64,000 bases of DNA from a virus (taxonomy: Duplodnaviria > Heunggongvirae > Uroviricota > Caudoviricetes): the IMG/VR virus record IMGVR_UViG_3300031993_000018, positions 89,614 to 153,613 of that record. The stretch is one strand, 5' to 3'. The notes under the pieces are model-generated. The model was not told the origin of the DNA and made no database searches. It saw nothing but the letters and a program-made list of their open reading frames with translations. Made by a program: the position numbers and the translations under genes. Below, piece by piece: positions 1,149-55,766 of this stretch (its first letter is position 1; every line of letters begins with the position of its first letter).

Positions 1149-1236
1149 GGAGGGTTGCCTGAGTGGACGAAAGGGGCTGCCTGCTAAGCAGTTGAACCCT
1201 TTATGGGTTCCAGAGGTTCGAATCCTCTACCCTCCG
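1149..1236 (+). tRNA. tRNA-Ser (anticodon GCU), class II with long variable arm
   Basis: Hand-folded cloverleaf. Acceptor GGAGGGT pairs with ACCCTCC, discriminator G. D-stem CCT pairs with AGG around a GG-containing loop. Anticodon stem GCTGC/GCAGT with loop CTGCTAA. Variable arm AACCC-TTTAT-GGGTT. T-arm AGAGG-TTCGAAT-CCTCT. CCA is not encoded. Confidence 0.8.
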
Positions 1237-1354
1237 CACATAAATACTATGAATATACAATGTTTTTGGTCCAGAGGATTCCGGAACCTTTTGAGTGTTA
1301 ATAAAAGACACGAATGGATTAGAGACAGTTAAATACAAAATAATTTAATAAAGT

Positions 1355-2234: not shown

Positions 2235-2615
2235 ATGAAAAGATTTACAAACAGTGAGATTACATTTGGTGAGGAGATCCAAATCAATGACTGGCAGGTC
2301 AGACTTCCTGTCATTGTTGATGGTAAGGAGATGTCTGTTGATGATGTGAACTTCATCATAGAACCTCATTATGTGTCAGGAGAGACATTGTATCAACCTC
2401 ATATATTCATTGATGAAAGACTCCGGGACCAAGGTCTGGGATATGGAATCTACAAGGCATTCATACATGAGTTCGGGAACATATACAGTTCCCACTGGTG
2501 TAGGACAAACAACAAGGAAATTATATCCATCTTCAACAAACTTGCACTGGAAGATGACATAGTGGTGGAGAAAAACAACAAATATTATTTCGCATATCTA
2601 AAGGGTTCAAGATAA
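2235..2615 (+). CDS. Hypothetical protein
   Basis: 126 aa ORF immediately after a terminator; followed by a hairpin plus TTTTGTTATATTTAA cassette. Confidence 0.45.
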   Translation: MKRFTNSEITFGEEIQINDWQVRLPVIVDGKEMSVDDVNFIIEPHYVSGETLYQPHIFIDERLRDQGLGYGIYKAFIHEFGNIYSSHWCRTNNKEIISIFNKLALEDDIVVEKNNKYYFAYLKGSR

Positions 2616-2661
2616 TTTGAACCTTTTTTGTTATATTTAATCTGGATTATTTAATTGAATT

Positions 2662-3792
2662 ATGCAGATTATAGACAATGTACAACTTGACTTCAGTGAT
2701 GTTCTCATTAAACCCAGGAGGTCAAGTATTGATTCGAGAAGTAAGGTAGATATTACCAGGGAGTACAAATTCAAATGGTGTCCATATAAAATCACAGGTA
2801 CTGGTATTATGCAGGCCAATATGGGAACCATAGGTAACTTTAAAGTGAGTGAGAAACTGTTGGAGAATGGTATGTTTGCTTGCCTTCACAAATATCATGA
2901 TACTGACAAACTGATTGATTTCTACAAGAAACTCATCCACAAAGGTGACGGAAGTATGAGAAGATGTCTCCTTGCAATAGGATTGAGAGATAATGGTATT
3001 GAGAAACTGAGGGAAATAAACAAGGCAACCGGTGAACAGATTGGTGTGAAGTTTGATGTTCCCAATGGATATATTCCCCAGGTAAAGGAAAGAGTCATTG
3101 AACTCAGGAAGGAGTTTCCAGATATGTTCATTATGGTTGGTAATGTGGTTACTGGTGATATCACAGAAGACCTGATTCTGTCAGGTGCAGACTGTGTTGC
3201 AGTAGGTATCGGTAATGGTGCCCAGTGTCTCACAAGAAGACAGACAGGTTGCGGAAGACCACAGTTCTCCGCTGTCGTAGAGTGTGCAGATGCAGCTCAC
3301 CAGGTCGGAGGTATGGTTTGTTCTGATGGTGGTATCACCTGTCCTGGAGATTTGGGTAAGGCATTTGGTGCCGGTGCGGATTTCATTATGATAGGAAGTC
3401 TGTTTGCAGGAACTGATGAGGCAGATGGTGAGACTGTTGAGAAGTATGTCTTCAATGGTGAGTATGACAAAATATTATATAATCCTGGTTATGTGTTTGA
3501 TCCCCATCTTGATAAGAAACAGTTCAAACAGTTCTATGGTATGAGTTCAACTCTGGCCCAGGAAAAGTTTGGTAATGGTAAACCCAGTTACCGTGCGAGT
3601 GAAGGTCGTGTAACTCTGATGCCTTATACAGGATCTGTTTGTGATGTGATTGAGGAACTCCTTGGAGGATTGAGGTCAACAATGACTTATATAGGTGCAT
3701 GGAAACTCAAGAATATTCCTAAACAGTGTGTGTTCTATAAGGTTCACAACCAACTGAACCAGACATATGAGAGATTTACAGTAGGTAAATAA
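2662..3792 (+). CDS. guaC: GMP reductase (IMPDH/GMPR family)
   Basis: N-terminal LDFSDVLIKPRRSS and the motif GADCVAVGIGNGAQCLTRRQTGCGRPQFSAVVECADAAH...SDGGI...GADFIMIGSLFAG match E. coli GuaC almost motif-for-motif, including the catalytic Cys loop. Confidence 0.85.
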   Translation: MQIIDNVQLDFSDVLIKPRRSSIDSRSKVDITREYKFKWCPYKITGTGIMQANMGTIGNFKVSEKLLENGMFACLHKYHDTDKLIDFYKKLIHKGDGSMRRCLLAIGLRDNGIEKLREINKATGEQIGVKFDVPNGYIPQVKERVIELRKEFPDMFIMVGNVVTGDITEDLILSGADCVAVGIGNGAQCLTRRQTGCGRPQFSAVVECADAAHQVGGMVCSDGGITCPGDLGKAFGAGADFIMIGSLFAGTDEADGETVEKYVFNGEYDKILYNPGYVFDPHLDKKQFKQFYGMSSTLAQEKFGNGKPSYRASEGRVTLMPYTGSVCDVIEELLGGLRSTMTYIGAWKLKNIPKQCVFYKVHNQLNQTYERFTVGK

Positions 3793-4788: not shown

Positions 4789-5889
4789 ATGTATTTATGT
4801 ATGAATAAGAATTTTTTAGAAGATTTTTTGAAGACTTACAGACCTTCAGGGTTTGAACAGGAAGGTGCTGAAGTGTTTGTCAGTAATGCCTGTGGACTCA
4901 AAGGAGTCAAGAAAGAGTTTATTGATAAGATGTGGAATGCATGTGTGAGTGTGGGTAGTGAAAAGGAGGATGCACTGAAAATCCTCATCTCCGGTCACTC
5001 TGATCAGAACTGTCTCATTGTGACTGAAATCACAAAGAATGGTTTCCTCAAGTATGCAACCCAGGGTGGATTCTCTCCAAGGACAGTAATTGATTCAGAC
5101 CTCTTTGTCATCACAAACAATGATGGTGTGAAGAAACTTATCCCCTGCTTCTGTAGTTATAAAGCAATACATATAGAAAAACCGGATGACAGAAAGAAAT
5201 GTCCAGAACATAAGGATCTCTATCTTGATTTGGGATGTACATCCAGGGAACAGGTTGAGAAACTCGGTGTACATATAGGTGACCTGGTTGTATTCAACAA
5301 CAGTGGTCTGAATATGGACTTTGGTCCTGATGGCAACTACATTGTAGGTTCAGGTCTTGATGATGGTGTTGCTTGCGGAATCGTTTATGATGTCCTGAAG
5401 AAACTTGATGAGAATGAACTCAAGGAGATGAACATCAGGGTATATGGTGCATGCATCACATCAGAGGAAACTGGTGCCAGGGGTGTTGGTCCTGTAGTAA
5501 GAAAGGTTCAGCCACATATCTCCATAGATATTGATGTATGTCATGACTGCACCAAGGAGATTGGTGAGGATGAAGGCCGGATTGCAAAGATGGGTGATGG
5601 TGCTGTCCTGAACTATGGTCCTGACAAATACAGACCTCTCAATGAAGACTTGAGACAGATTGCAAAGGATTATGACATCAAGTTGCAACTCATTGCCGGC
5701 AAGGCAGGAGGTACAAACACCAACAACATCCAGATGATGTCAGACAACTGTGCCACAACCCTGTTGAGTATCCCTTGCAGATATATGCACAGCGGAACAC
5801 ATGAGATGGTCAATAAGGATGACATTGATGGTTGTGGTCAGCTCATATACAAGTTCATCAACAAGGTAGATCCAAAGAAGTATGTATAA
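4789..5889 (+). CDS. M42-family metallopeptidase (glutamyl aminopeptidase / cellulase-M like)
   Basis: Segments GHSDQNCLIVTEITKNGFLKY, GSGLDDGVACGIV, ITSEETGARG and RYMHSGTHEM line up with the conserved metal-ligand blocks of M42/FrvX peptidases. Confidence 0.6.
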   Translation: MYLCMNKNFLEDFLKTYRPSGFEQEGAEVFVSNACGLKGVKKEFIDKMWNACVSVGSEKEDALKILISGHSDQNCLIVTEITKNGFLKYATQGGFSPRTVIDSDLFVITNNDGVKKLIPCFCSYKAIHIEKPDDRKKCPEHKDLYLDLGCTSREQVEKLGVHIGDLVVFNNSGLNMDFGPDGNYIVGSGLDDGVACGIVYDVLKKLDENELKEMNIRVYGACITSEETGARGVGPVVRKVQPHISIDIDVCHDCTKEIGEDEGRIAKMGDGAVLNYGPDKYRPLNEDLRQIAKDYDIKLQLIAGKAGGTNTNNIQMMSDNCATTLLSIPCRYMHSGTHEMVNKDDIDGCGQLIYKFINKVDPKKYV

Positions 5890-6752: not shown

Positions 6753-6794
6753 TTGAAGAAAGAGTCAGGAAAACCTGACTCTTTTGTTATTTTT

Positions 6795-7388
6795 ATGTTG
6801 TCAAAAAATGTATTTATTATGAGCAGACCAAACAAATGTATCAAGGATGAGAATGGAAAGGATCAGTGGATCTCCCGCAGTACTGTGGTAATACCTATTG
6901 TATTCAAGATAGACAATGAAACCGGAGACATCTACACTATTGTGGAACAGAGAGGTAATGCAGTAACCCATCCTGGTGAATGGTGTTGTCCCTGTGGATT
7001 TATAGACTGGGATGAGACTCTTGAAGAGGCCTGTCAGAGGGAAGTGAGGGAAGAGACCGGAATCATCCTCAATCAGGAAAACATCCATTTTATGTATGTC
7101 TATAGTGACCCCAAGAGTACCAATCAGACTGTTGACTTGTGGTATATGTGCTGGACAGATGCAGACATAGACACATCAAAGATTGAAACAAAGGAAGAGG
7201 TTATGGATGTAAGGTGGCTGAAGGTCGGTAAGTTATACCGGGGTAGTACATTGTTCATCTTCAACACATCAATCAAAAACTGTTATGGTACCTGGGCATT
7301 TAAGACACATGCCGGCAGAGTCATAGAGATGTTGAAAACAATTGTCAAAGATGCCAAGAATGGTAGAGTGGTTGAAGTAAATGATTAA
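6795..7388 (+). CDS. NUDIX hydrolase
   Basis: Nudix box [23 protein letters not shown] (Gx5Ex7REUxEExGU). The ORF-track start at 6753 is a TTG lying inside terminator hairpin 6761..6783, so the ATG at 6795 (or 6819) is preferred. Confidence 0.75.
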
Positions 7389-8880
7389 GAAAGGCAAATA
7401 TGAGAATATCCTGGATCATGGATATACAGTCTGGCTTGACTTCTTGCTGAATGACCAGCAGAAGGATGTCATCAAGCAGATAAATGACTTCATAACAAGT
7501 CCTACTGAATTTGCTATGACCATATCCGGATGGGCTGGAACAGGTAAGACCACCCTGATGGAAATTGTCAACAAGAGGTACTGGATGAGTCATACTGTTC
7601 ATTTTGCAGCCACTACACACAAGGCAGCAGGTGTACTCAAGGAGAAAGTAGGAAAGAAGGTATTTACTGTCAATTCACTCTTTGGAATCATGATTGAAAC
7701 CGATATGGAGGGTGAAACATATGATGTGTCCAAGAAAGCAAGGAAACTATCTGATGACAAAGTGAAACCAAACTCAATCATCATTATTGATGAGGCATCT
7801 ATGCTTTCCATCCAGAACTATATTGATGTGATTCTCAAGGCAAGAGAAAGAAAGTGCAAGATAATCTTCATAGGTGATTCAGCACAGTTGTCTCCTGTCA
7901 ATGAGGATGACATCTCCATTGTGTTCAGAAATACAGATCACAGGATAGTGGAACTCACCAAAGTGATGAGAACTGATGATGACTCCATCCTGAATGAATC
8001 CACTTCTGTAAGAACAGGTGATGGATTCACATATGAAACTCACATCAATGAAGAGGGAGATGGTGTCAGATATATCTCAAGTAAGGATACAAAAGCAATT
8101 CTTGATGTAATTGACAATCATATTGAAGGTCTGAAAGATGATCCCAATTACTTCAGGGTACTTACATACACCAATGCCAATGTGGAGAAACTGAACAGGA
8201 TGATCCGCAAGAAACTTGGTTATGACGGTCTGAATCCACAACCTGGGGAACCATTGATGGCATACAGTAACTGGGGGTATCAGGGTATGGGTCTATCAGG
8301 TGCTGTATATGTTGTGGTCAATTCGGAGGCATATACAGTCAAGAGTGTTCCTGAAATGTATGATGTCATTGTCCATAAAGAGGATGTAAGCAGAATGATA
8401 ACATACACCAATGAATCAAGATTGGATGACTACAACCTTGAAATCATTGACCTTGAGATTGAAGACTCACTGGGTATTCCTATTGATGTTCCTTTGATTG
8501 ATGTCAAGAACAACTCTCACAACAGGGAGATAGTGGTTGCCCTTGCATATGAGAAAGTCCATCAGTGGAATCTCTACAGGGAAGCGGAAAACAAAAATGA
8601 CAAACTGACCTGTCTTGATAAGATAAATGCCATTGATGACTTCCTGTTTGTCAATGACAATGTATATGACAAGTATGGAACTCTGATCCAGGCCAAGGTG
8701 ATTGACTATGGTTATGCCCATACAATCCACAAGAGTCAGGGAAGTACCTTCAGGCATGTTCTCATCAATGATGATGACATCAACCGCTGTCTTGACAAGA
8801 ATGTAAAAAAGCAGCTCAGGTATGTGGCTGTTACCAGGGCACAGAAATCAGCAAATATTATTACATCACATGTTGTTTAA
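7381..8880 (+). CDS. Dda/RecD-like SF1B DNA helicase
   Basis: Walker [10 protein letters not shown], Walker [11 protein letters not shown], and a C-terminal [13 protein letters not shown] motif typical of RecD/Dda/Pif1-type helicases. Confidence 0.8.
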
Positions 8881-10708: not shown

Positions 10709-10867
10709 ATGGATACATTTAGATACAAGGTCATTAAGACTTCTACAGAATTGAGTGAAGCGAAACTCAACGAATTCGGCCGCAGAGGATTTGAACTTGT
10801 CAGTGTTGATTCTGATGAGTATGGTCACAGATATTATTTCAAAGTAAAGGTGGAGAACAATGGGTAA
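10709..10867 (+). CDS. Small hypothetical protein (52 aa, below ORF-track cutoff)
   Basis: Hand translation gives MDTFRYKVIKTSTELSEAKLNEFGRRGFELVSVDSDEYGHRYYFKVKVENNG. It overlaps the tdk start with an ATGGGTAA arrangement. Confidence 0.35.
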   Translation: MDTFRYKVIKTSTELSEAKLNEFGRRGFELVSVDSDEYGHRYYFKVKVENNG

Positions 10868-11429
10868 ACTGACATTCACTTATGCCTGTATGGGTGCCGG
10901 CAAAACAACCCAGATGCTCACAATGTTTGACCAATATAAGAGGAGAAAGAAGAAACCCATCATTGTCAAACCCTGTATAGATGTGAGGGAAGGTGTGTTC
11001 ACTGGTTGGGGTATCACAAAGTCACGAATTACGAAGAACGAGGAACCGACCTATTACTACAAGAATCTGAAAGAAGAGTTGGAGAAACTTGACTATGGTG
11101 TTCTCTTTGTGGATGAGGTACAGTTCCTATCCAGGGAAGATGTCCTGACACTCTGTGATGTATGTGACAAAAAGGATGTTGATGTGTTCTGTTTTGGACT
11201 CAAGACTGATGTGACTGGTAATCTCTTTGAAGGGAGCAGATACCTGTTGGCCCTGGCAGATAACCTCAATGAAATCCAGACTCCCTGTGAGATAGAAGGA
11301 TGTAACTGTAATGCAACCTGTCATATCAGATATATAAATGGTGTGAGGGATACAGATGGAAGAACTGTCGCAATAGAGACGGGAGATGTGACATATAAGG
11401 CAGTGTGTAGGAAACACTGGAAGTTATAA
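10860..11429 (+). CDS. tdk: Thymidine kinase (TK1 family)
   Basis: P-loop CMGAGKTT, Mg/dT site FVDEVQFL, lasso FGLKTD, and a C-terminal zinc ribbon C..C...C..HIRY...C. Confidence 0.85.
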   Translation: MGKLTFTYACMGAGKTTQMLTMFDQYKRRKKKPIIVKPCIDVREGVFTGWGITKSRITKNEEPTYYYKNLKEELEKLDYGVLFVDEVQFLSREDVLTLCDVCDKKDVDVFCFGLKTDVTGNLFEGSRYLLALADNLNEIQTPCEIEGCNCNATCHIRYINGVRDTDGRTVAIETGDVTYKAVCRKHWKL

Positions 11430-18039: not shown

Positions 18040-18933
18040 ATGACAAAGAAAGCGGAATATATCGGTGATAACCATCCTCAGGTCTATGGATTTGAGGTTG
18101 GTCATATCTATTTATACAGAGACTTTGGTAGAGGGGTTGAAGTCTATTACTCCAAAGAGGGTGGTACTTCCCTGGCAATGGGTTACAATATGTTCAATGC
18201 CTGCTTCAGGGGTGTGGAAGATAAAGTGTTCAAGAAGGAGGGTAGACTCCAGCACATCACTTTCACAGGTATTGATTGGAAGACTGACTTGAATGAACTG
18301 TCAGAAATCCAGAAGCAGTATCCCTATGTGGAATGGGGAGTACTTGTATCAAAAAATTGGAAGACCAATGGTAACAGGTATTTCAACCCCTCATTCATAG
18401 AAGCACTTGACAGTAACCTCAACCTATCTGCACATATGTGTGGAAGGATTGCAAGGGAAGCAGTCAGAGGAAACCTGAATCCATTCCTGGATTGGGTAAA
18501 TGGATATGGTTACATCTTCAAGAGATGTCAACTCAACATATCAGGAAGTGAGACCAACCCAGAGAAGTTTGAATACAAGGGTGATTTGTCAGATTACTTT
18601 GATGAAGTCATACTTCAACAGAAGGGAGTCAATAACTGTGACCTGTTTATGAAGAGCAAGGGAAACAGACATGTGTCCATACTCCTGGATGCATCCGGTG
18701 GAAATGGAATCAACACTGACATTGAACTCCTCAATGTCAGGTCAAAGGTTGGTTATGCTGGAGGTATCAATGCCGACAATGTGGCAGAGAAACTAACATA
18801 TCTTGAAGAGAACTGCAAGACTCCATATTGGATTGATATGGAAGCAGGTGTAAGAACCAATGACTGGTTTGACACAGAGAAGGTGAGAAAGGTTCTGGAG
18901 ATTTGTGATGGTATAATCAATAAAAAGAAATGA
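18040..18933 (+). CDS. Hypothetical protein, possibly a (beta/alpha)8 barrel with C-terminal GGI..DN phosphate-binding motif
   Basis: 297 aa ORF. The C-terminal YAGGINADNVAEKL resembles the terminal phosphate-binding loop of ribulose-phosphate-binding barrels such as ThiE/TrpF. Weak. Confidence 0.45.
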   Translation: MTKKAEYIGDNHPQVYGFEVGHIYLYRDFGRGVEVYYSKEGGTSLAMGYNMFNACFRGVEDKVFKKEGRLQHITFTGIDWKTDLNELSEIQKQYPYVEWGVLVSKNWKTNGNRYFNPSFIEALDSNLNLSAHMCGRIAREAVRGNLNPFLDWVNGYGYIFKRCQLNISGSETNPEKFEYKGDLSDYFDEVILQQKGVNNCDLFMKSKGNRHVSILLDASGGNGINTDIELLNVRSKVGYAGGINADNVAEKLTYLEENCKTPYWIDMEAGVRTNDWFDTEKVRKVLEICDGIINKKK

Positions 18934-18934
18934 C

Positions 18935-19396
18935 ATGGATCCAAATGATGTAAAACGTGGAGACTGGGTATTCTCCAATACTATGAACCAACCCTGTAAG
19001 GTACTGGGAATCATCCCGGAGGAGACAGAGGAGGGTGAGAAAATTGTGTTCAAACTCACAAATGGTACATCAACATTCCTTGTCTATAACACAAGTGTGG
19101 ATCCTCTTGACATAAGTGATGACTTCCTTTTAAAGAATGATTTCCAACCAATCAAAGGTGTAGACAACAATACCATAAAATATATTTTGATTGAAGATGG
19201 AAGAAGAGAAGGATGTGTTATAGAGATTACTCCTTACAATCCTCCTCATATGGGTGTGAAATTCCTGGTCTCAATCCACACAGAATCAACACACGATAAT
19301 GGTGTAAACAGGATACACAATTGTGATATTGAGTATGTACACCAACTTCAGCATGCATTTAAGATTTGTAAAATTAAAAAAGATTTTATTGTATGA
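18935..19396 (+). CDS. Hypothetical protein
   Basis: 153 aa ORF. Confidence 0.45.
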   Translation: MDPNDVKRGDWVFSNTMNQPCKVLGIIPEETEEGEKIVFKLTNGTSTFLVYNTSVDPLDISDDFLLKNDFQPIKGVDNNTIKYILIEDGRREGCVIEITPYNPPHMGVKFLVSIHTESTHDNGVNRIHNCDIEYVHQLQHAFKICKIKKDFIV

Positions 19397-19908
19397 AAGC
19401 ATTTTACTTTGGTGGTCAGTTCAGGTTCAGATACAAGGACTGTAATCCTGATTTACTGGCAAAGGATTACCGGTCACTCCTACTTGGAGACAAGAAGGAT
19501 ATATGGATTAACAGACCTGAATGGGGATATGTGGAAATCAATGATAGTGTATTATATAATGGTCCATTCTACTTCTATGACCAGATTGATTCAGAGACTG
19601 TTGTCAAGGTTGAATCAGAAAGTATAAGTGGTTCAACTGACTGTGTGTTTGTGTTGAGTAATGATGATGCACCTGGAACAGTCACAGAGATAATCCAGGC
19701 AACAATGTTAAAGAAGAATGTGTACATATTCTTTGAGAAGAAAGATTTGCCAAAGGAAGAGGTGGATACCAAATATCCTTCAAACCTTTGGTATGTAATA
19801 ACATTTGCCTGTATGAATAATAACCCCAATGTCAAATACTGTATGGGATTTGATACGTATGATGATGCAGTTAAAGCATGTGTTAACTATTTCAAAGGAG
19901 TATTATGA
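19393..19908 (+). CDS. Nucleoside 2-deoxyribosyltransferase-like protein
   Basis: N-terminal FYFGGQF resembles Lactobacillus NDT (IYFGAGWF). Acidic block DDAPGTVTEIIQA sits at the position of the catalytic-Glu motif DxGxxxExG. Confidence 0.4.
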   Translation: MKAFYFGGQFRFRYKDCNPDLLAKDYRSLLLGDKKDIWINRPEWGYVEINDSVLYNGPFYFYDQIDSETVVKVESESISGSTDCVFVLSNDDAPGTVTEIIQATMLKKNVYIFFEKKDLPKEEVDTKYPSNLWYVITFACMNNNPNVKYCMGFDTYDDAVKACVNYFKGVL

Positions 19909-20459
19909 TTGAGTTTATTTGTGCAATACTTGGTCTGGCACAGGGAGTTCTGGCCTGGCTTAACAAGAGAATCAACTGGCTTGTATATGCAGTGATGATG
20001 GTGTTTCTAATCATATTCTCTGCTGCCAACAATCTATGGGCAGATGTTTTTCAGAACTCAATATATGCAGCAATATGTCTTTATTCATACTTCATAATGT
20101 GGAACAAAGGTTCTGATTTTGACCACATATCAAAGATGAGTAATGAAAATAGATATTGGACTGTTGCGATAGTATTGTTGGCAACACTCCTGCTTGGTGT
20201 GTTGTTAAAGGGTACCAATGACCCCTTACCTGTGATTGATGCATTTACCACAGTTACTACATTTGGAGCCCTGATACTGATGTCACGACACAAGATAGAA
20301 TGTTGGATTATGTGGTTAATCAATGACATTGCTTACATTGTCCAGTACTATATGTTACCGGACCAGGCATGGTATTTGATATTCCTGTATATAATATGGA
20401 CAGGATTTGCCATTGGTTCATTGATAACTTGGAGAAAGCAAATGATAACTAATTCTTAA
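19905..20459 (+). CDS. pnuC: PnuC-family nicotinamide riboside transporter
   Basis: 184 aa multi-TM protein. N-terminal ICAILGLAQGVLAWLNKRINWLVYAVMMVF, Trp-rich helices and an overall layout resembling PnuC. Confidence 0.6.
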   Translation: MIEFICAILGLAQGVLAWLNKRINWLVYAVMMVFLIIFSAANNLWADVFQNSIYAAICLYSYFIMWNKGSDFDHISKMSNENRYWTVAIVLLATLLLGVLLKGTNDPLPVIDAFTTVTTFGALILMSRHKIECWIMWLINDIAYIVQYYMLPDQAWYLIFLYIIWTGFAIGSLITWRKQMITNS

Positions 20460-33282: not shown

Positions 33283-34074
33283 ATGGCAAAAAAGAAGGAG
33301 AATGAAGAGGAGAAGACAATCTCTCCAAGTCAGTACTTTGATTTCTTGAAGGGAGCAAAGAACATCATCACAACCGAGGCACTCAAGGAGTCATATGATG
33401 TGTTCATAAAACTGGCTGAAAAGTACCAAAAGATAGGTCAGGTGGAGTCTCTCAAGAAGCTTTGCTTCCTTGCAGACACACTGGTGAAGGAGGAGAAACT
33501 CATTGAGATGGGAATCAACACATTCATCTATAAGGACACCATTGAGGACTACATTGAGAATGTGGCAGGTAAGACCGTCAAGATTGTGGAACTCTCCAGA
33601 TATATGAGAGAGGTTCCGGATGAACTGGTGGAGACCATTGAAAAGACCAAGAGTCTCTTCAATGAGTTCTATGTAATCTTCACAGACTATACCGGTAAGG
33701 AAGAGAGAAAGATTGAGAAGGAGAGAAGGGATAAGGATCCCATCCTGTTCGGTGTGTTCAAAGACAACACCAATGTATCTGACCGCTTCTACTTCCTGGG
33801 TGACTGGGTGGATGAGTATTGTGACCTCACCCTTGACAAGATGGTTGAGCAGTACAAGTCAAAGAAGAATGTCTCACCTGTTGTAACCACAGAGATACCC
33901 AAGGATAGTGATGAACTTGTTTCAATCCTCAAGACATACAAGATTGAGGAGAAGAAGGGTAACAGTTACATAACCCTTACACCCAATGATCCGCTTCCTG
34001 TTGCCAATTACAAGGTAGAGGGTGAAAAGAAACCCGGATTCTTTAAGAAGGTCTTCAGTGTATTTAAGAACTAA
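33283..34074 (+). CDS. Hypothetical protein
   Basis: 263 aa ORF immediately upstream of the leader-family array. Confidence 0.5.
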   Translation: MAKKKENEEEKTISPSQYFDFLKGAKNIITTEALKESYDVFIKLAEKYQKIGQVESLKKLCFLADTLVKEEKLIEMGINTFIYKDTIEDYIENVAGKTVKIVELSRYMREVPDELVETIEKTKSLFNEFYVIFTDYTGKEERKIEKERRDKDPILFGVFKDNTNVSDRFYFLGDWVDEYCDLTLDKMVEQYKSKKNVSPVVTTEIPKDSDELVSILKTYKIEEKKGNSYITLTPNDPLPVANYKVEGEKKPGFFKKVFSVFKN

Positions 34075-35968: not shown

Positions 35969-37288
35969 ATGAAACTAACATTAGAGAATATTACAATCAA
36001 AGACCACAAGATTTATGACCCGGAAGGAAACTTCAGGGGAGAAATCTTGTATGAGTACATTCGTGGTTCTCATCTGTATTCAACCAATGTGGAGACATCA
36101 GATGAAGACCAGGGAGGTATCTACATTATGCCTAACAGCACCATATTGGGTCTTGGTCTTGACTATCAGAATGAGATAAAGGATAAGAGTAATGACAAGT
36201 GCATCTGGGAGTTGGGAAGATTCCTGGAACTTGCCCTGTCTTCAAACCCAACTGTCCTGGAGGCACTCTTTGTTCCTGGTGATAAGGTCATCTATGAACA
36301 TCCTGTCATCAAGGAGATCCGTTCACACCGTGATGAGTTTATCACCAAGAAGTGTTTTGCACCATTTGGAGGTTATGCTTCAAGTCAGATAAAGAAGGCT
36401 CAGGGTCAGAACAAGAAGATCCACTGGGATATTGCCCAGATGGTAAGGAAGACTCCTATGGACTTCTGTTATACCTTGAAGAACCAGGGTAGTCAGCCTA
36501 TGCAGGACTGGTTGGATGAAAGAGGACTTGATCAGAGAAACTGTGGTCTGGTCAATATTCCCAATATGCCTGATATGTTCGGTGTGTATTATGACTGGGG
36601 TCAGCACATCAGACTTGCCGGTATCACCAAGGAGTATTTCACCAATAAGGAGAATTACTACAAGGATAAGTTTATCAAGACTATGGACATGTATCTTGGA
36701 AATGAATATATCCTCCATGAGGATGGAAACCTTGAGGATGAACTTGAATATATCTGGGATCATCACTCTGAACCTCATGGTGGTTACTGTGGAATCATCT
36801 CACCCAATGAGGATTCCAACACAGTAAGGTTCTCTTCTGTTGTCAAGGGTGAGAAACCCATCTGTTATATGTCTTACAATGCCAATGCATATATATCACA
36901 TTGTAAGGAGTATAGGGAGTATGAGGACTGGAAGGAACACAGAAATCCAGCAAGGTATGAATCCAATATGGAGGGAGAGAAGTCAGGCAATGCAGATATG
37001 AAATATGACTGCAAGAATATGATGCACTGCTTCAGGTTGATGGCAATGGCAAAGGAGATTGCAGAAGGAAAGGGTGTGATCCTGGATCGCGCTGGTATTG
37101 ACAGGGAGTTTCTCCTGGATGTTAGAAACCGTAAGTATGGTTATTCTGAACTCCAGAAGAAGATGCTTGACCTGAAGGATGAGATGGATGCTGCCATTGA
37201 GAAATCTACCATCAAGGATGAGATTGATCCCCAAATGGTCAATGACCTCCTCCTGGAAGCAAGAAAACATTTTAATTCAAAAGATTAA
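35969..37288 (+). CDS. Pol-beta superfamily nucleotidyltransferase (GSHLYST...SDED motif)
   Basis: Near the N-terminus, IRGSHLYSTNVETSDEDQGG fits the GS...(S/T)D.D nucleotidyltransferase active site. The ~440 aa protein probably carries a helical substrate-binding extension. Confidence 0.5.
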   Translation: MKLTLENITIKDHKIYDPEGNFRGEILYEYIRGSHLYSTNVETSDEDQGGIYIMPNSTILGLGLDYQNEIKDKSNDKCIWELGRFLELALSSNPTVLEALFVPGDKVIYEHPVIKEIRSHRDEFITKKCFAPFGGYASSQIKKAQGQNKKIHWDIAQMVRKTPMDFCYTLKNQGSQPMQDWLDERGLDQRNCGLVNIPNMPDMFGVYYDWGQHIRLAGITKEYFTNKENYYKDKFIKTMDMYLGNEYILHEDGNLEDELEYIWDHHSEPHGGYCGIISPNEDSNTVRFSSVVKGEKPICYMSYNANAYISHCKEYREYEDWKEHRNPARYESNMEGEKSGNADMKYDCKNMMHCFRLMAMAKEIAEGKGVILDRAGIDREFLLDVRNRKYGYSELQKKMLDLKDEMDAAIEKSTIKDEIDPQMVNDLLLEARKHFNSKD

Positions 37289-37305
37289 CTTTAAAAAATA
37301 ACACT

Positions 37306-37581
37306 ATGTTTGGAATTATTTTATCATTAGTAGCTGCACTTCTATGTGCAATTTCATGTGGTATTTACATTCTTGAAAAGAAACCGGTGGGTGCCACATT
37401 TTTTGGATTCTTGTCAATTTTAAATCTTGTTTTCTTTTTTCTTAATCTTGTGAACTATAATTCAAATGAAATTGAGAAACATGAGATTGAAAATGTTATA
37501 AAGTATGATGTTGACAGTACCATGACAATATCCGGAAAGGACACTACAAAGACATACACAATTTATTACTACAAATATTAA
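37306..37581 (+). CDS. Small membrane protein
   Basis: Two hydrophobic helices at the N-terminus. Confidence 0.4.
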   Translation: MFGIILSLVAALLCAISCGIYILEKKPVGATFFGFLSILNLVFFFLNLVNYNSNEIEKHEIENVIKYDVDSTMTISGKDTTKTYTIYYYKY

Positions 37582-37585
37582 AATT

Positions 37586-38035
37586 ATGAAACCGGAGAAT
37601 AGGAATACATTGAAGAAAAGTGTGGAAGCTCTCACTACCCTTGGGTTCAAACCTGAAAACATTATGGTAACCGGAAGTATAGCTCTGGATATTGTTGGAG
37701 TACTTCCCCCGAACAGATGGACTCATGACATTGATTTCATCATCAAAATGGATGACAAGTCTTGGCATTGCATGAAACTGCTTGAAGCAATTGAAAAGGC
37801 AGATATGGGTAAGGATAGCAAGTATCCTGATGACAAGAATATGGTCTTCCTGAAGTTAAAGGGTATCAGTACTAACATATGGAGACACACTCCCAACTTT
37901 GACTGGTCAACCATCAAGGATACAGAGACTGGTGTTATGGTGGCAACAGTGTCTCATATTATTCAGGCAAAGAAGGCATATGGTCGCCAAAAGGACTATG
38001 AGGATCTTGCCGCCATTTGCAAATACATTCTTTGA
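37586..38035 (+). CDS. Hypothetical protein, possible minimal nucleotidyltransferase fold
   Basis: VTGSIALDIVGV....THDIDFII resembles the GS...D.D motif of MNT-type nucleotidyltransferases. Weak. Confidence 0.3.
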   Translation: MKPENRNTLKKSVEALTTLGFKPENIMVTGSIALDIVGVLPPNRWTHDIDFIIKMDDKSWHCMKLLEAIEKADMGKDSKYPDDKNMVFLKLKGISTNIWRHTPNFDWSTIKDTETGVMVATVSHIIQAKKAYGRQKDYEDLAAICKYIL

Positions 38036-38266
38036 TAATGATATTCAAGTTCAATGGAGGTAGAGGTGCCATCCTTTGTGACAAATGTGGAATCATCCTC
38101 AAGTCAGGAGATGACATTCCAAAATATGTCTGGGATGCAGTCAGGAAAGGTACTGTAAGTGACCTCCCTGGTATGTGTTGTGATGACAACTGTGAAAGAA
38201 GTAAGAAAATTCTTGGAGACATCTACACAGGTAACACCAAAGATGTAGGACAATAAAATTAAGATT

Positions 38267-39112
38267 ATGTATTTCAAAAACCTAAAAGAAAAGTGCGAAT
38301 ATTACCGTTCGCTTACTGATTATAAACTGATGTCAAACTCTTATGTCCTGGTGATGGTGGATGGTCACTGTTTCAGCAAGATGATCAAGAATAAGTTTGA
38401 CAAACCATTTGATGATGAGTTCATCAATATGATGAATGAGACTGCAAAGTATCTGTGTGAACAGGTACAGGGAGTTAAGTTTGCATACACACAGTCTGAT
38501 GAGATTTCACTTCTCATCACAGACTTTGACACACCAGTAACCGATGCATACTTTAGTTTCAGACTCTGTAAGATGCAGTCACTCATTGCTGCACTGGCAA
38601 CTGCCAAGTTCAACCAGTTATATGCCATCCATAACATTGGTAAGGAAGTGAGTGGTGGCAGCAACAAGATTGAACTTAAGAAGACTATTCCACTCTGTAC
38701 ATTTGACTGTAAGGTATGGACTGTTCCAAATGCAAATGACGCCTATGCCTGGTTCCTCTACAGACAGACTGACTGTATCAAGAACTCAAAGGCACAGACA
38801 GCCCAGACATATCTTCCACACAAACAGTTGGTGGGTCTGACAGCAGATGATATGATTGCCAAACTCAAGGATGAGCAGAACATTGACTGGTATGAGTTTG
38901 TCAATGGTAAGAAGTATGGAAGACTCATCAGGAAAGTGGAGACTCCTATGGAGAAAGACCTTTCCAATGGACTACACATTGAATACATAAGGAATGTATG
39001 GACACCTGTTGAGATAACAGACTTGAGAGAGGATGGGTCACAAGTGAGAGATCTGATTCCTGAACTGTTCAGACCTGGTGTTAATATAAAAGAAGAAATC
39101 ACAGAAGAATGA
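38267..39112 (+). CDS. Thg1-like protein (tRNA-His guanylyltransferase family 3'-5' nucleotidyltransferase)
   Basis: YVLVMVDGHCFSKMIKNKFDKPFDDEFINMMNETAKYL and FAYTQSDEISLLI parallel the Thg1/TLP N-terminal catalytic blocks (R.DGR.FH.F...KP.D....M...A...AYG.SDE.S..L). Confidence 0.65.
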   Translation: MYFKNLKEKCEYYRSLTDYKLMSNSYVLVMVDGHCFSKMIKNKFDKPFDDEFINMMNETAKYLCEQVQGVKFAYTQSDEISLLITDFDTPVTDAYFSFRLCKMQSLIAALATAKFNQLYAIHNIGKEVSGGSNKIELKKTIPLCTFDCKVWTVPNANDAYAWFLYRQTDCIKNSKAQTAQTYLPHKQLVGLTADDMIAKLKDEQNIDWYEFVNGKKYGRLIRKVETPMEKDLSNGLHIEYIRNVWTPVEITDLREDGSQVRDLIPELFRPGVNIKEEITEE

Positions 39113-39489
39113 TTATAGGTATAGATTTTGATGGGACATGTGTAAAGCATGCATATCCCAATATAGGAGATGACATTGGTGCTGTTCCAGTACTCAAGGA
39201 ATTCATAAGACAGGGACACAAACTGGTTCTCATCTCAATGAGGTCCGGGGAACTCCTGGACAATGCCGTACAGTGGTTTAAGGAGAGAGGAATTGAACTC
39301 TATGGAGTAAACCACAATCCTGATCAGGACAGTTGGACTAAGTCACCAAAGATTTATGCACAACTGTATATAGATGATGCCGGACTTGGTTGCCCCACTA
39401 ATTTTGACCAGAGAACCGGAAGACCTTATGTGGATTGGAAAGTAATTGCACAGGCATTCGGTTACAAATATGATGAACTTCCAAAATAA
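39109..39489 (+). CDS. Small HAD-superfamily hydrolase
   Basis: Motif I IGIDFDGTCV (DxDGT); 126 aa. Confidence 0.5.
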   Translation: MIIGIDFDGTCVKHAYPNIGDDIGAVPVLKEFIRQGHKLVLISMRSGELLDNAVQWFKERGIELYGVNHNPDQDSWTKSPKIYAQLYIDDAGLGCPTNFDQRTGRPYVDWKVIAQAFGYKYDELPK

Positions 39490-39499
39490 TATTTGATTT

Positions 39500-40219
39500 A
39501 TGGATACTACCAATACCAATTATTATTATATGATGAGAGATGAGATAGACAGTATTGACAATCCTGAAATCAGGAGGTTTGCCAACACACTGTTGAACAG
39601 AGTCCCCGATTATTTTTTCAAGGTACCCGCATCTTCATCAGGTAAGTATCACCCAAAGAATGACCTGGGTGAGGGTGGATTGGTCAGACACTCCATCAGT
39701 GTAAAGAGAATGCTTGTACATCTCCTTGAACTGGACTGTTATAGTTTCTCTGATGATGAGAAGGATCTCCTGATTGTTGCGGCTCTGTTCCATGACTGTA
39801 TGAAGTCAGGAACACAGGAGGAGTATAAGAAAAACAACAGAACCAAATTCCTCCATCCTGTCCTGGCTGCCAACTTCATTATCACCACATCTGTGATAGA
39901 TGGGTTCAAATATGATTGGGCATTGTATATTGCTGATGCTGTGATTTCACATATGGGTCAGTGGAACACCAACAAGAGTGAGGATGGTGAACTCCCTGTC
40001 CCTGTTAATCCGGCACAAAGAATCCTCCATCTTGCAGACTATCTTGTCTCAAGAAAGGACATCAATATGGTCCTCAGGGAAGATGATGAGATTATTGACA
40101 ATGAAGTAATTGTAACCCAGGATGACAACAAGGATGAACCTGGAGATGTTCCTGAACACAAGGAGAATGGTGAGGACACCAAGACAGCACCAGGAACAAC
40201 TATGGAAATGTCAGACTGA
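39500..40219 (+). CDS. HD-domain phosphohydrolase
   Basis: H...HS...AALFHDCMK contains His-Asp metal ligands, with additional downstream His (ISHMGQW). A bidirectional terminator follows. Confidence 0.6.
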   Translation: MDTTNTNYYYMMRDEIDSIDNPEIRRFANTLLNRVPDYFFKVPASSSGKYHPKNDLGEGGLVRHSISVKRMLVHLLELDCYSFSDDEKDLLIVAALFHDCMKSGTQEEYKKNNRTKFLHPVLAANFIITTSVIDGFKYDWALYIADAVISHMGQWNTNKSEDGELPVPVNPAQRILHLADYLVSRKDINMVLREDDEIIDNEVIVTQDDNKDEPGDVPEHKENGEDTKTAPGTTMEMSD

Positions 40220-43927: not shown

Positions 43928-44461
43928 ATGGAAAGGATTAATATTAGATTTAAGATAACACTCCTGATGCTTGCGATATCGCTCGCAGTAAATGTGTACT
44001 TCATATCAACCAAGGAACAGAAACATCCTGGTAATGAAGATTCATATCCTGTTGTGGTGCAGAACAATGTCTTTTACTCAATGCCTGACACCCTGTCAGA
44101 CTGGAGTACCCTTCAGTTGGCAATAGCAATGACTGAGTCTGAATTCAAACCGGATGCAGTCGGAAAGACAAAGGATTATGGTATCTATCAAATCACTCCC
44201 ATTTATGTGGAAGAAATCAACAGACTCCTGGGTGAACAGATTTATACCCATAACCAGGCATTTGACATAGAAAAGTCTGTTGAAATGTTCAATGTTATGC
44301 AGGAGTTCAAGAATCCTGATCATGACATTGAGACTGCCATATACTATCACAACAAGGCCTCCTGGTATAAGAAGAAGGTGTTGAGAAACTATGAGACAGT
44401 CAAGAGGTATGAGGAGTTGAGATCCATATTACAAGATTATAACAAATCACAGAACATATGA
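43928..44461 (+). CDS. Lytic transglycosylase (SLT domain) with N-terminal signal anchor
   Basis: LQLAIAMTESEFKPDAVGKTKDYGIYQIT matches the SLT catalytic block (ES.F.p.A.S..GA.GLMQ). Confidence 0.65.
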   Translation: MERINIRFKITLLMLAISLAVNVYFISTKEQKHPGNEDSYPVVVQNNVFYSMPDTLSDWSTLQLAIAMTESEFKPDAVGKTKDYGIYQITPIYVEEINRLLGEQIYTHNQAFDIEKSVEMFNVMQEFKNPDHDIETAIYYHNKASWYKKKVLRNYETVKRYEELRSILQDYNKSQNI

Positions 44462-44742
44462 GAATAGAAAAAAGGCAGAAGACAGTGGTTGTAGACTATA
44501 ATGTCTATATTGCCAATGATGGTCAGGAGTTTGCAAGTGCGGAACTGTGTCGTGATCATGAGAAGATGCTTGATGGTACCAGGATCACCTGTCCAGAATG
44601 TGATGGAAAGAAAGGATACCGAGGTAAGTGGATAGAACCATATGATCATTGGGATGGACCAATGGGTGGTTATTATGAATGGCATACATGTTCAAGATGT
44701 GGAGGTAAGGGTTACCTTGAAAAGAAAACAACCTGGGAATAA
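44458..44742 (+). CDS. DnaJ-type cysteine-rich zinc-finger protein
   Basis: CPECDGKKG ... CSRCGGKG (CxxCxGxG repeats). Confidence 0.4.
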   Translation: MRIEKRQKTVVVDYNVYIANDGQEFASAELCRDHEKMLDGTRITCPECDGKKGYRGKWIEPYDHWDGPMGGYYEWHTCSRCGGKGYLEKKTTWE

Positions 44743-44894
44743 CTATGGCACACATATTAACACAGAAGGAAACTGAAACAAGTTCGGTGTATGTTATGCC
44801 AGCAAAAGAAAAATGCAAAACATGCATATACAAACATCATGATTGTTCAAGTGACCCGGACAACAAGTGTCAAGTAACTTATTAACCGAAGAAT

Positions 44895-45197
44895 ATGACA
44901 ACTAAATCATTCAAAGAATTACTCAACAAATCCTTTGAGATAGGATTTAATGATGAGAAAAGAATCATTTGGTTTATCAATGATTGCCCCTGGCTCAATA
45001 TTGAGTGGAAAGAAGGAAATGGGTTTATCTTTGATTATAAAAAGAATACATTTGTTGCTCATATTACCATTGACAGTGTTCCAAGACTTGTGGATGCTCT
45101 AAATCTTTGTGGACTGTCAGTGTTGGCAAAACAGGTAACATATAACTTTATAGACTCCGGTAGATGTCCGGAAATAAAAGAAGACATTGTAAAATGA
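44895..45197 (+). CDS. Hypothetical protein
   Basis: 100 aa ORF. Confidence 0.4.
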   Translation: MTTKSFKELLNKSFEIGFNDEKRIIWFINDCPWLNIEWKEGNGFIFDYKKNTFVAHITIDSVPRLVDALNLCGLSVLAKQVTYNFIDSGRCPEIKEDIVK

Positions 45198-45691
45198 TAA
45201 GAAGAATAGTAGTTGACGGTAATGACGGAACAGGAAAGACTGCAACCATTAACAAGTTGAAGTTCCTATTCCCTGGTATTGAAATACAGGACAGAGGTCT
45301 GTTCTCTGAAGCGACTCTCAATGATGAGTTGTTCAAGGAGTATGAGGAAGAGAGTAAAAGGAGGGAAAATAACCCGAATTTATTTCTAAACTTTGGTATG
45401 AATATTGATAACCAACAGGTGAACAAAAACATCATGAATTTCCTGTTGAGTCTCAGTGAAATCCCAGAATGTGATACACTCTTTATCATATGTGTTGCAG
45501 ACCCGGAGGTATGTCAACAGAGAATTGCTGCCAGAGGTGACTCCATTGAGGAGGAATATCACACAATGGAAGACTTGAAAAAGTTTGACTACCGTTTCAG
45601 AATACTGTGCAGACTTGCCGATTACAAACAGAACATAATGTTGGTTGACACAACAAACAGGACAAACCCGGATACTTGTGATCTGGTATAA
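45194..45691 (+). CDS. P-loop nucleoside/nucleotide kinase (thymidylate-kinase / NRK-uridine-kinase-like)
   Basis: RIVVDGNDGTGKTATINKL (Walker A) followed by IQDRGLF. ATG 45194 is preferred over 45164, which overlaps the upstream gene. Confidence 0.5.
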   Translation: MIRRIVVDGNDGTGKTATINKLKFLFPGIEIQDRGLFSEATLNDELFKEYEEESKRRENNPNLFLNFGMNIDNQQVNKNIMNFLLSLSEIPECDTLFIICVADPEVCQQRIAARGDSIEEEYHTMEDLKKFDYRFRILCRLADYKQNIMLVDTTNRTNPDTCDLV

Positions 45692-45714
45692 AAATAATAT
45701 GTAAAGTTAAAGAT

Positions 45715-45987
45715 ATGGATAAAGCAAAAGAAAAAGCATTGAAGGCATACCCAGATTATGTTGGGTTCAATGACCCTAACACCATAAACCATGTGAGAAA
45801 AGCATATGAAGATGGTTACAATGAAGGTCATAAAGACTCGGCTGTCACCACAGAGGACATAGCCAGGATAAAGGACTTGCTGGACATCGTTCGTGCAGTC
45901 AAGGGTGTTTCAATACCTCAGGACCAGTTCTATGAGGAGGTGTTGAAGAGATACAACAACTGGAAAGAAAACAAATCAAAAAATTGA
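45715..45987 (+). CDS. Hypothetical protein
   Basis: 90 aa ORF. Confidence 0.4.
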   Translation: MDKAKEKALKAYPDYVGFNDPNTINHVRKAYEDGYNEGHKDSAVTTEDIARIKDLLDIVRAVKGVSIPQDQFYEEVLKRYNNWKENKSKN

Positions 45988-45994
45988 AAATAGT

Positions 45995-55755: not shown

Positions 55756-55766
55756 TCACAATCAAT

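Follow-up and report, generated by a model that had tools for sequence, protein, structure and literature searches.

A Pnu-family transporter coupled to a divergent nucleoside deoxyribosyltransferase-like enzyme in jumbo phages and gut and rumen bacteria

Transporters of the Pnu family are facilitators that need a co-localised trapping kinase, and nicotinamide riboside (NR), thiamine and riboflavin are already counted among their substrates (PMC5749112). In phages, PnuC combined with NadR is a proven NAD+ counter-defence (PMC13464706). The described example closest to the locus studied here is NARP3 of Escherichia phage TrudiRoth (Bas30_87/86; PMC13464706), a two-gene operon of a PnuC-like transporter and a NadR-like, bifunctional NMNAT/RNK enzyme. 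A second point of comparison is 'PnuN', a branch of the Pnu family whose predicted cargo is deoxynucleosides (Rodionov and Gelfand 2005, by the citation given in PMC7749635). That assignment was made from genomic context, through NrdR regulation; PnuN itself has never been characterised, and our literature search met the name in a single biology paper.

The DNA analysed here, referred to as the window, is a 64,000-nucleotide stretch of a Caudoviricetes genome (IMG/VR record IMGVR_UViG_3300031993_000018). Its interval 19393..20459 consists of two ORFs on the + strand, an NDT-like enzyme that we call A (19393..19908, 171 aa) followed by a Pnu-family transporter (19905..20459, 184 aa). Both junctions of the pair have an ATGA start/stop overlap. 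Translational coupling can be read directly from the sequence at the A/transporter junction (19894..19908, + strand), where a Shine-Dalgarno motif, AAAGGAG (19894..19900), lies within the 3′ end of A, ahead of the transporter ATG, which itself overlaps the stop of A. The same overlap geometry is repeated in the related loci L001, L004, L006, L052 and L054. A megablast search with 17-23 kb of the window against INPHARED gave no match. The original prediction, made from the letters alone, had called these genes PnuC-like and NDT-like, and family profiles and a fold model proved it right on both.

The transporter matches the Pfam NMN_transporter family (PF04973) with an E-value of 2.6e-31 and 109.4 bits against a cut-off of 27.3. 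The alignment runs end to end, from residue 2 to 178 of 184 and from model position 3 to 175 of 175, and PHROG 1880, annotated 'PnuC-like', is also matched (E 8e-19). A profile of the transporter family matched the PnuC crystal structure 4QTN (E 6e-16) from chain residue 45, while the sole match of a single-sequence PDB search, Cas11c, was discarded as spurious. Members of the family are recognised by a 3+1+3 transmembrane core, by WxxW(x)3D/N in TM6 and by gate tryptophans where TM3 and TM7 end (PMC5749112). The transporter has seven hydrophobic segments, and the motif W134-x-x-W137-x-x-x-D141 and gate residues Trp66 and Trp176 are invariant in 20 homologues. The protein is a full-length 7-TM Pnu facilitator; it comprises the seven-TM core and lacks the additional N-terminal helix seen in N. 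mucosa PnuC.

Whether such a protein prefers NR or deoxynucleosides is not readable from its sequence here. It passes the cut-off of TIGR01528, 'nicotinamide riboside transporter' (51 bits against 42.45), which speaks for NAD+ salvage and against a deoxynucleoside substrate; however, it shares only ~23-25% identity with annotated phage PnuCs (E 0.1 or worse). In context it departs from PnuC in the strict sense, its conserved partners being an NDT-fold enzyme and a kinase resembling thymidylate kinase (Tmk) and deoxynucleoside kinases (dNK).

Gene A escaped all standard searches. There was no match in Pfam, PHROG or NCBIfam, and the Pfam NDT models PF05014 and PF15891 gave nothing at E ≤1, placing A below their detection threshold. 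No hits came from tblastn against phages and no relatives from a scan of IMG/VR with an A profile. A narrow profile (A1) likewise found nothing in the PDB; matches appeared only after distant family members were added, the broadened profile (A4) reaching BcmB at E 6.8e-6. Relatives bridge the gap to PF05014, the NDT half of database protein P0089 scoring 35 bits against 28.8 and others remaining sub-threshold. The AlphaFold model of A (pLDDT 89) has a flavodoxin-like NDT fold. A shares this fold with the NDT superfamily, which comprises types I/II, the (d)NMP N-glycosidases Rcl/DNPH1, MilB and BcmB, and phage DmtZ, and it also shares a nucleophilic Glu in G-T-x-x-E, an acid one helix earlier and an N-terminal Tyr. 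The predicted catalytic residues are Tyr5, within a Y-F-G-G motif, Glu74 as the acid and Glu99 as the nucleophile; In alignments Glu99 falls on the nucleophilic Glu of BcmB and C. thermalis NDT, and Glu74 on the acid Asp. Unlike known NDTs, A carries an extra beta-hairpin and helices (residues 19-56), has family-specific invariants (D25-x-R27, Y55-x-G57, K108 and W133) and is always linked to a membrane transporter. Profiles and model together place A in the nucleoside 2-deoxyribosyltransferase (NDT) superfamily, as a clade for which there was no model before.

Two positions bear on what A acts upon. In classical nucleoside NDTs (type I/II) an Asp six residues before the nucleophile binds the free 5′-OH. 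At this position (93) A has Ala in 20 of the 21 phage-clade members and Ile in the remaining one, and Ser, Ala or Cys elsewhere, but never Asp. The substrates of A may therefore be monophosphates, and it may hydrolyse instead of transferring, a point against the reading favoured below. At the second position Tyr goes with 2′-deoxy and Phe with ribo substrates across the superfamily, as stated in PMC7308715 with reference to Sikowitz 2013. All 21 phage-clade members have Tyr. However, Phe is present in 51 of the 152 family members that have a residue there. Among bacterial A proteins Phe replaces Tyr in about half, and the 'deoxy' label thus does not fit the entire family. DmtZ, a phage enzyme of the NDT family, acts on dAMP (PMC12884076).

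The third protein is encoded 25 kb away from the pair in this genome, at 45194..45691 on the + strand (alternative start 45164; 165 aa), and is a miniature P-loop kinase of the thymidylate/deoxynucleoside-kinase class. Four methods agree on the Tmk/dNK-like assignment. Its closest structures are Tmk and deoxyadenosine kinases, and neither NadR-RNK nor Nrk was the nearest match by sequence or structure. The original prediction had left open an NR kinase versus a Tmk/dNK: the protein sides with the latter, though not as a firm thymidylate kinase, since it scores only 27.7 bits with the dTMP kinase equivalog TIGR00041, far under the cut-off of 83.25. It is a truncated relative, not an orthodox Tmk: aligned with the Tmk family, mini-kinases of only ~130-165 aa lack ~50 residues of the acceptor-binding region. 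The suggestion that this kinase belongs with the transporter held up well: homologues are found within three genes of the pair, though not further than that, in the phage contexts L007, L008, L049, L050 and L051, and they occur in 28 of 40 bacterial loci. P0091, P0094, L040 and L043 are fusions of such a kinase with the NDT-like domain, and P0106 joins A, kinase and Ham1.

The pairing of A with the transporter is tighter still. The two genes are adjacent, and mostly overlapping, in all phage-type contexts examined (the window, L001-3, L004, L006, L007, L008, L049, L050, L051, L052/53 and L054), with variable flanking genes. An A-family ORF accompanies the transporter in 36 of 40 loci from metagenome-assembled genomes that were found with the transporter profile, and in 34 of the 36 that are readable on both sides of the transporter gene; L046 has no A, and in L037 a match is obtained with the broader A4 profile alone. 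The genes are directly adjacent except in L032 and L033, where a 91-aa ORF intervenes. Moreover, they are fused into single ORFs in L010, L039 and L042 and in the database proteins P0077 and P0089. The distant phage Pnu genes of LR756502 and MT836775 have no A neighbour, and the pairing is therefore clade-specific. A PRAI-like TIM-barrel gene upstream (18040..18933), a 153-aa ORF and a downstream 272-aa ORF were rejected as parts of the module because they occur with the pair only in the closest relatives (L052/53) and are absent from the other contexts. Some relatives also encode an outer-membrane DUF5020 barrel, itself phage-encoded and essentially unstudied in the literature. In range, this widespread and compact module spans jumbo phages and low-GC gut and rumen bacteria.

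Bacterial neighbours include PurA and Ham1/ITPase (13 loci each), a radical-SAM protein (11 loci, and fused to A in P0074 and P0080), an uncharacterised 196-aa protein (21-24 loci) and an NrtR-family, NrtR-like wHTH regulator that follows the module in 28 loci. This variety of partners would fit import of a different nucleoside-like compound: a ribonucleoside, a purine nucleoside (inosine or another), or a modified one, for instance queuosine. A would free or swap the base and the kinase would trap what results, and the assignment to deoxy substrates would be mistaken. The breadth of known Pnu substrates, the Phe-bearing members and the small residue six positions before the nucleophile, a feature shared with (d)NMP glycosidases, point the same way. 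However, the uniform Tyr of the phage clade and the structural neighbours of the kinase do not, the window survey showed none of the radical-SAM, PurA and Ham1 partners, and no riboswitch hints at another ligand. We regard this explanation as rather unlikely.

The original prediction had further proposed a chain from NR import through NR kinase and adenylyl transfer to NAD+. The genes that it listed are all present: a NUDIX hydrolase (6753..7388; PF00293, E 6e-18), the P-loop kinase and two PPAT-fold adenylyltransferases (45995..46477 and 59885..60343), both matching the CoaD model. The latter score 139.5 and 137.1 bits with the CoaD equivalog TIGR01510 (cut-off 103.3) and only ~20-27 bits with NMNAT models. 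The PDB matches of 45995..46477 are PPAT in 34 of 34 cases, with E-values down to 4e-27, and the translations show the PPAT motifs PGTFDPxTxGH and RGxR..DFEYE. By these measures both enzymes are bona fide CoaD. No NadR, NMNAT, NAMPT or AAA_28 was found among the ~60 window ORFs scanned (nearly all + strand ORFs of at least 120 aa) or beside the transporter, so the NR to NMN to NAD+ chain is not supported here; with a firm CoaD pair and weak NMNAT matches, the proposal is largely refuted on computational grounds. The ORF 3′ of the NUDIX gene (7381..8880), suspected to be a NAMPT by comparison with NadV/NatV phages, is a Dda-like SF1 helicase. CoA salvage was also considered, given the two CoaD genes and a true CoaE inside the L049 cassette, and was not adopted: that pathway offers no role for an NDT-fold enzyme, and CoaD and CoaE are missing from most contexts.

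An NAD-type variant nevertheless keeps some standing, given the NrtR-like regulators beside the bacterial module and the NMNAT-like genes close to it in two phage relatives. Regulators of the NrtR family usually go with NAD genes, as in the streptococcal nadR-pnuC-nrtR arrangement (PMC2330246), and their presence in the bacterial loci counts against the deoxynucleoside reading. L008 encodes a NadD-like NMNAT (107 bits with TIGR00482, whose cut-off is 112.45) and L050 a NadM-like NTase, each within a few genes of the cassette, and a TIR_2 gene is also near the latter. In fact an adenylyltransferase is a repeated neighbour of the kinase, being CoaD-like in the window, L044, L040 and L043, and a pure deoxynucleoside route needs none. 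In such a 'split-NadR' variant of NARP3, the transporter would import NR and the mini-kinase would phosphorylate it. An NMNAT of host or phage would finish the pathway, and A would handle pyridine (deoxy)ribosides, perhaps exchanging their bases. The established role of phage PnuC with NadR lends this some weight. However, NMNAT-like neighbours occur in only 2 of ~11 phage contexts, the Tyr of phage-clade A disfavours a 2′-OH, and Rfam, run over 37 loci, gave nothing relevant, with neither an NAD+-II nor any other riboswitch ahead of the module in 35 bacterial loci. We therefore consider NAD+ salvage improbable, at roughly one chance in five. NARP3 and the present cassette are alike in joining a phage Pnu transporter compactly with cytoplasmic processing, and in the logic of facilitation and trapping. 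They differ in that the partners here are an NDT-fold enzyme and a separate Tmk/dNK-like mini-kinase, and the host range of the NARP3 phage is unrelated to that of the gut and rumen jumbo phages.

The reading we favour, to which we give about even chances, is that the pair at 19393..20459 is the core of a PnuN-like cassette for (deoxy)nucleoside import, base exchange or cleavage, and phosphorylation. The Pnu facilitator would let a nucleoside, most likely one or more 2′-deoxynucleosides, diffuse into the infected cell. A would then break the N-glycosidic bond through a covalent sugar-Glu99 intermediate and hand the sugar to another base or to water. The mini-kinase would phosphorylate the (deoxy)nucleoside or its monophosphate and so trap it, like the partner kinases of other Pnu transporters. 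Overall, the cassette would supply precursors for copying a very large phage genome and adjust the balance of their pools, alongside the phage thymidine kinase (10860..11429; PHROG 592, E 5e-51) and GMP reductase (2662..3792; 393.6 bits, just under the cut-off of 397). The identities and folds of the three proteins, the conserved catalytic residues and the tight linkage, including fusions, are observed. We infer the substrate (deoxy or ribo, and nucleoside or nucleotide for A), the order of the last two steps and the benefit to the phage. Besides the linkage, the reading draws on the NDT fold with its catalytic Glu, acid and Tyr, the phage-clade Tyr and the Tmk/dNK-like kinase, and on the thymidine kinase and GMP reductase of the window and the bacterial PurA and Ham1/ITPase neighbours. 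PnuN is the closest functional analogy, yet NrdR-like boxes are not enriched upstream of the bacterial operons: sites with at most three mismatches to the consensus precede 5 of 36, about the chance level, which argues against the favoured reading, as do the Phe-bearing bacterial A proteins.

The original prediction had also offered base exchange on nucleosides for DNA modification. The exchange itself is close to our favoured explanation; the purpose fared poorly. A would, like DmtZ, place a non-canonical base on deoxyribose or deoxyribose-5-phosphate and yield a modified phage genome. A GmrSD_N-type domain and a D12 methyltransferase are encoded in the window and would suit this. However, the module is common in bacterial chromosomes alongside housekeeping purine genes, the window survey found no PurZ, DpdA/TGT, hydroxymethylase or similar base-synthesis gene, and known hypermodification routes need no imported precursor. 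DNA modification is therefore very unlikely.

Taken together, a module of Pnu transporter, new NDT clade and mini-kinase appears to be undescribed. Our literature search found no paper on 'PnuC' together with 'deoxyribosyltransferase', and obligatory pairing or fusion of PnuN with an NDT-fold enzyme is not described; the fusions serve as internal proof that the module is coupled. A phage 'PnuC' is not automatically an NAD+ counter-defence gene, although annotation pipelines merge the two, and the conserved partners here point to salvage of nucleosides and DNA precursors. The long-standing PnuN hypothesis of deoxynucleoside uptake gains a small, concrete gene set for expression and assay. Moreover, ~120 cluster representatives, largely missed by current Pfam models, are added to the NDT superfamily, whose enzymes are of practical interest as nucleoside-analogue biocatalysts. 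More speculatively, and with odds we put well below even, the three proteins may form a 'deoxynucleotide reconstitution' system, a dNTP counterpart of the NARP pathways, in which deoxynucleosides of the gut or rumen lumen would be pulled into the infected cell, with the DUF5020 barrel added in relatives, and converted to the dNMPs needed. If so, the NDT-fold enzyme, transporter-coupled and in some bacteria fused, would be a new kind of Pnu trapping partner, and genomes of >400 kb would be replicated independently of host ribonucleotide reduction and with resistance to dNTP-depleting defences.

Two plus-strand ORFs, enzyme A (19393..19908, 171 aa) of the NDT (nucleoside 2-deoxyribosyltransferase) superfamily and a Pnu-family transporter (19905..20459, 184 aa), bear out the original prediction of a PnuC-type transporter beside an NDT-like gene. 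The two are joined by an ATGA start/stop overlap, with a Shine-Dalgarno AAAGGAG lying within the 3′ end of A. The transporter matches Pfam PF04973 (E 2.6e-31), PHROG 1880 (E 8e-19) and TIGR01528 (51 bits, cut-off 42.45). A profile of 20 homologues matches the N. mucosa PnuC structure 4QTN (E 6e-16) from residue 45 of the latter, so the phage protein comprises only the 7-TM core and lacks the optional N-terminal helix. Hydropathy gives seven hydrophobic segments, and the motif W134xxW137xxxD141 and gate tryptophans W66 and W176, features described for the family (PMC5749112), are invariant. Judged from its sequence, this ORF is a full-length Pnu-family transporter. Against phage proteins annotated as PnuC, those of KVP40-like phages among them, identity is only ~23-25%, at E 0.1 or worse. 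The only other ORF with multiple hydrophobic segments, probably 55704..56354, encodes a second membrane protein, of the formate/nitrite transporter family (E 2.4e-18 in the window survey). Directly before A, through an overlap of the same kind, lies a 153-aa orphan (18935..19396), preceded by a 297-aa protein (18040..18933) whose C-terminal third weakly matches phosphoribosylanthranilate isomerase (PRAI; 31 bits against 22.7). The junctions here are tight or overlapping, and outside the nearest relatives (L052/53) neither ORF is conserved.

Enzyme A has no match in Pfam, PHROGs or NCBIfam, and a word-indexed search returned only 12 close homologues, all metagenomic, on which an AlphaFold model was built (pLDDT 89.3, pTM 0.87). 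Exhaustive HMM searching across 1.84 billion representatives recovered 119 family members. An alignment of 24 sequences, taking in distant members, matched BcmB (4JEN) at E 6.8e-6, and also NDTs, BlsM and MilB at 0.004-0.02. In these alignments Glu99 (motif P-G-T-V-T-E) occupies the position of the nucleophile Glu, Glu74 that of the general-acid Asp, and Tyr5 (F-Y-F-G-G) that of the N-terminal Tyr in NDTs. Five residues, Glu74, Glu99, Tyr55, Gly57 and Trp133, do not vary across the 24 aligned sequences and are almost universal in a 178-sequence set. According to a passage of PMC7308715 citing Sikowitz 2013, Tyr at the NDT Tyr/Phe position goes with 2′-deoxy substrates and Phe with ribo substrates. 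This position is Tyr in 21/21 phage-clade sequences; across the whole family, 101 of the 152 members with a residue there have Tyr and 51 have Phe. Six residues before the nucleophile, classical nucleoside NDTs have Asp and (d)NMP glycosidases Ser; this family has Ala, Ser or Cys there, and in no member Asp. A is NDT-like and forms a new clade of the NDT superfamily, one that current family models miss. Such an enzyme might serve base modification in a DmtZ-like manner (PMC12884076), a role we hold to be very improbable.

A adjoins the transporter in all phage-type contigs examined (L001-3, L004, L006, L007, L008, L049, L050, L051, L052/53 and L054), and the flanking genes vary. These include the 412-kb L001-3 contig, the 213-kb L004 and L008, whose A is only 40% identical (hhalign probability 99.9). 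A scan of GTDB, with one genome per species, gave 40 further loci, all from gut or rumen MAGs, with record titles mostly of Bacilli and Clostridia and a GC content of 22-34% in the 15 measured. Both genes are present in 36/40, in the order transporter then A, or in 34/36 of the loci that could be read in both directions from the transporter gene; A is missing from L046, and that of L037 was picked up by the broader A4 profile only. A 91-aa ORF separates the two genes in L032 and L033; elsewhere they are immediate neighbours, and in L010, L039 and L042 they form a single fused protein, as in the database proteins P0077 and P0089. In P0089 the NDT half scores above the Pfam PF05014 threshold. 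A and the transporter form a conserved unit. No A adjoins the more distant phage Pnu genes (LR756502, MT836775), so the association is particular to this clade of transporters.

A third component is a mini-kinase (45194..45691), with orthologues in several phage relatives. It lies two genes after the transporter in L007 (46% identical), three after it in L008 (40%) and adjoins the pair in L049, L050 and L051. The order A, transporter, DUF5020, kinase recurs in L007 and L051, with one extra gene in L008 and L049. DUF5020 (L007 4384..4986; L051 3399..4004; L049 3389..3988; L008 5817..6362) is not present in the window; its N-terminus in L007 is signal-peptide-like, and it probably forms an outer-membrane barrel, its family being one known from Bacteroides-type bacteria. 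Its presence suggests that the host is diderm and Bacteroidota-like, and that uptake runs the whole way from outer to inner membrane. In L001 the pair occupies exactly the kinase slot of the window, flanked by homologues of 44458..44742 and 45715..45987. The site is a swap hot spot (44742..45995 against L001 5964..7086), holding a 100-aa ORF and the mini-kinase in the window and the pair in L001, which has no homologue of the adjoining CoaD (45995..46477). Amongst the bacterial loci, 28/40 carry the kinase family as a single gene, a ~300-aa tandem or an A fusion (L040, L043). Database fusions join kinase to A (P0091, P0094) and A to kinase and Ham1 (P0106).

The kinase matches Pfam Thymidylate_kin (27.3 bits, cut-off 27) and PHROG 761, 'thymidylate kinase'; PF02223 or PF01712 is precomputed on 36/44 homologues, four of which bear the JGI name 'thymidylate kinase'. 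The profile check proposed with the original prediction therefore came out for the Tmk/dNK class, but not for the dTMP-kinase equivalog, where the score of 27.7 bits is far under the cut-off of 83.25. Moreover, the protein is much shorter than a real Tmk. We treat it, from these matches, as a Tmk/dNK-class kinase of unspecified acceptor.

The chain originally proposed, in which NR import, an NR kinase and adenylyl transfer rebuild NAD+ during infection, is not supported in the window. Both adenylyltransferases (45995..46477 and 59885..60343) pass the CoaD equivalog (139.5 and 137.1 bits against 103.3), the identity that the prediction had itself named as telling against it, whereas NMNAT models give ~20-27 bits. 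PDB matches of 45995..46477 are PPAT in 34/34 (E down to 4e-27), with the characteristic motifs present. In a Pfam survey of 47 further window ORFs, NadR, NMNAT, NAMPT and NadE were all missing; the hits included a thymidine kinase, a GMP-reductase-type enzyme and RNA-repair genes. The NUDIX protein (6753..7388) is generic, and the ORF after it, considered as a NAMPT, is a Dda-like helicase. The NAD+ pathway NARP3 combines phage PnuC with NadR (PMC13464706), whilst the surveyed ORFs encode neither NadR nor NMNAT. Given this, the CoaD identity and the distance of the transporter from phage PnuCs, we infer that NARP3 is not encoded here.

Some hints of NAD+ metabolism persist in relatives. The MAG operon has the consensus order transporter, A, PurA (13 loci) or a radical-SAM protein (11 loci), kinase, an uncharacterised 196-aa protein (21-24 loci), an NrtR-family regulator (28 loci) and Ham1 (13 loci). 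The radical-SAM protein is fused to A in P0074 and P0080. NrtR regulators mostly accompany NAD genes, nadR-pnuC-nrtR being one case (PMC2330246). Next to the kinase there is repeatedly an adenylyltransferase as well, of varying subfamily: CoaD-like in the window, L044, L040 and L043, and nearby NadD-like in L008 and NadM-like in L050. The regulator and the last two loci favour a split-NadR variant of NAD+ salvage, but the CoaD identity in the window and the lack of NMNAT, NadR, NAMPT and NadE in the surveyed ORFs make it unlikely. L050 reads kinase / transporter, A, 277-aa ORF, NadM-like NTase, 269-aa ORF, then a TIR_2 and Sel1 protein (8044..8387). L049 has a true CoaE (2251..2817; TIGR00152, 93 bits against 65.55) between A and transporter, and the window carries two paralogous bona fide CoaD genes; phages of this lineage seem to carry genes for late CoA-synthesis steps repeatedly. 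Searches for a riboswitch and for NrdR boxes as ligand clues found none. Salvage of another nucleoside-like compound has, in our estimate, perhaps one chance in five.

Our best explanation, which we give about an even chance, is a (deoxy)nucleoside salvage cassette resembling PnuN, the predicted deoxynucleoside branch of Pnu transporters. The transporter would take up (deoxy)nucleosides, A would exchange or cleave the base before or after phosphorylation, and the mini-kinase would phosphorylate (deoxy)nucleosides. Three observations weigh most: A has the fold and residues described, with Tyr in every phage-clade member; the kinase is of Tmk/dNK character; and the neighbours belong to purine/pyrimidine salvage, namely thymidine kinase and GMP reductase in the window and PurA and Ham1 in bacteria. 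The transporter-A and A-kinase fusions place A at the centre of the chain.

The window's additional nucleotide-salvage genes are the thymidine kinase (10860..11429; PHROG 592, E 5e-51) and the GMP reductase-type enzyme (2662..3792; NF003470, 393.6 bits, cut-off 397). An RNA-repair-type set spans about 35969..40219 and other ORFs of alignment A3, with a large nucleotidyltransferase (35969..37288; PHROG 388) and two ORFs (38267..39112 and 39500..40219) whose L001 homologues have Thg1 and HD domains; the survey also gave two RNA ligases, RlaP, HAD_SAK_2 and R2K ATP-grasp domains. Unusual phage cargo comprises a transposase-like gene (33283..34074; PHROG 10081, E 4e-74), an M42 aminopeptidase (4789..5889; E 7e-54) and an FKBP-type peptidyl-prolyl isomerase (59272..59883; 171 bits). 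The sole tRNA is Ser(GCT) (1149..1237). Stop codons of the ~109 plus-strand ORFs are TAA (72) and TGA (37), with no TAG, and the TAG trinucleotide is found 362 times, where base composition predicts ~1314. Either TAG is strongly avoided, or it is suppressed or reassigned in the lineage, the region here being one without in-frame TAG.

Phage PnuC and phage NDT-family enzymes are already known separately, whilst the searchable literature gave no account of a Pnu transporter whose pairing or fusion with an NDT-clade enzyme and a mini-kinase is obligatory. The module offers a small, testable gene set for the PnuN hypothesis and corrects a tempting NAD+ annotation.
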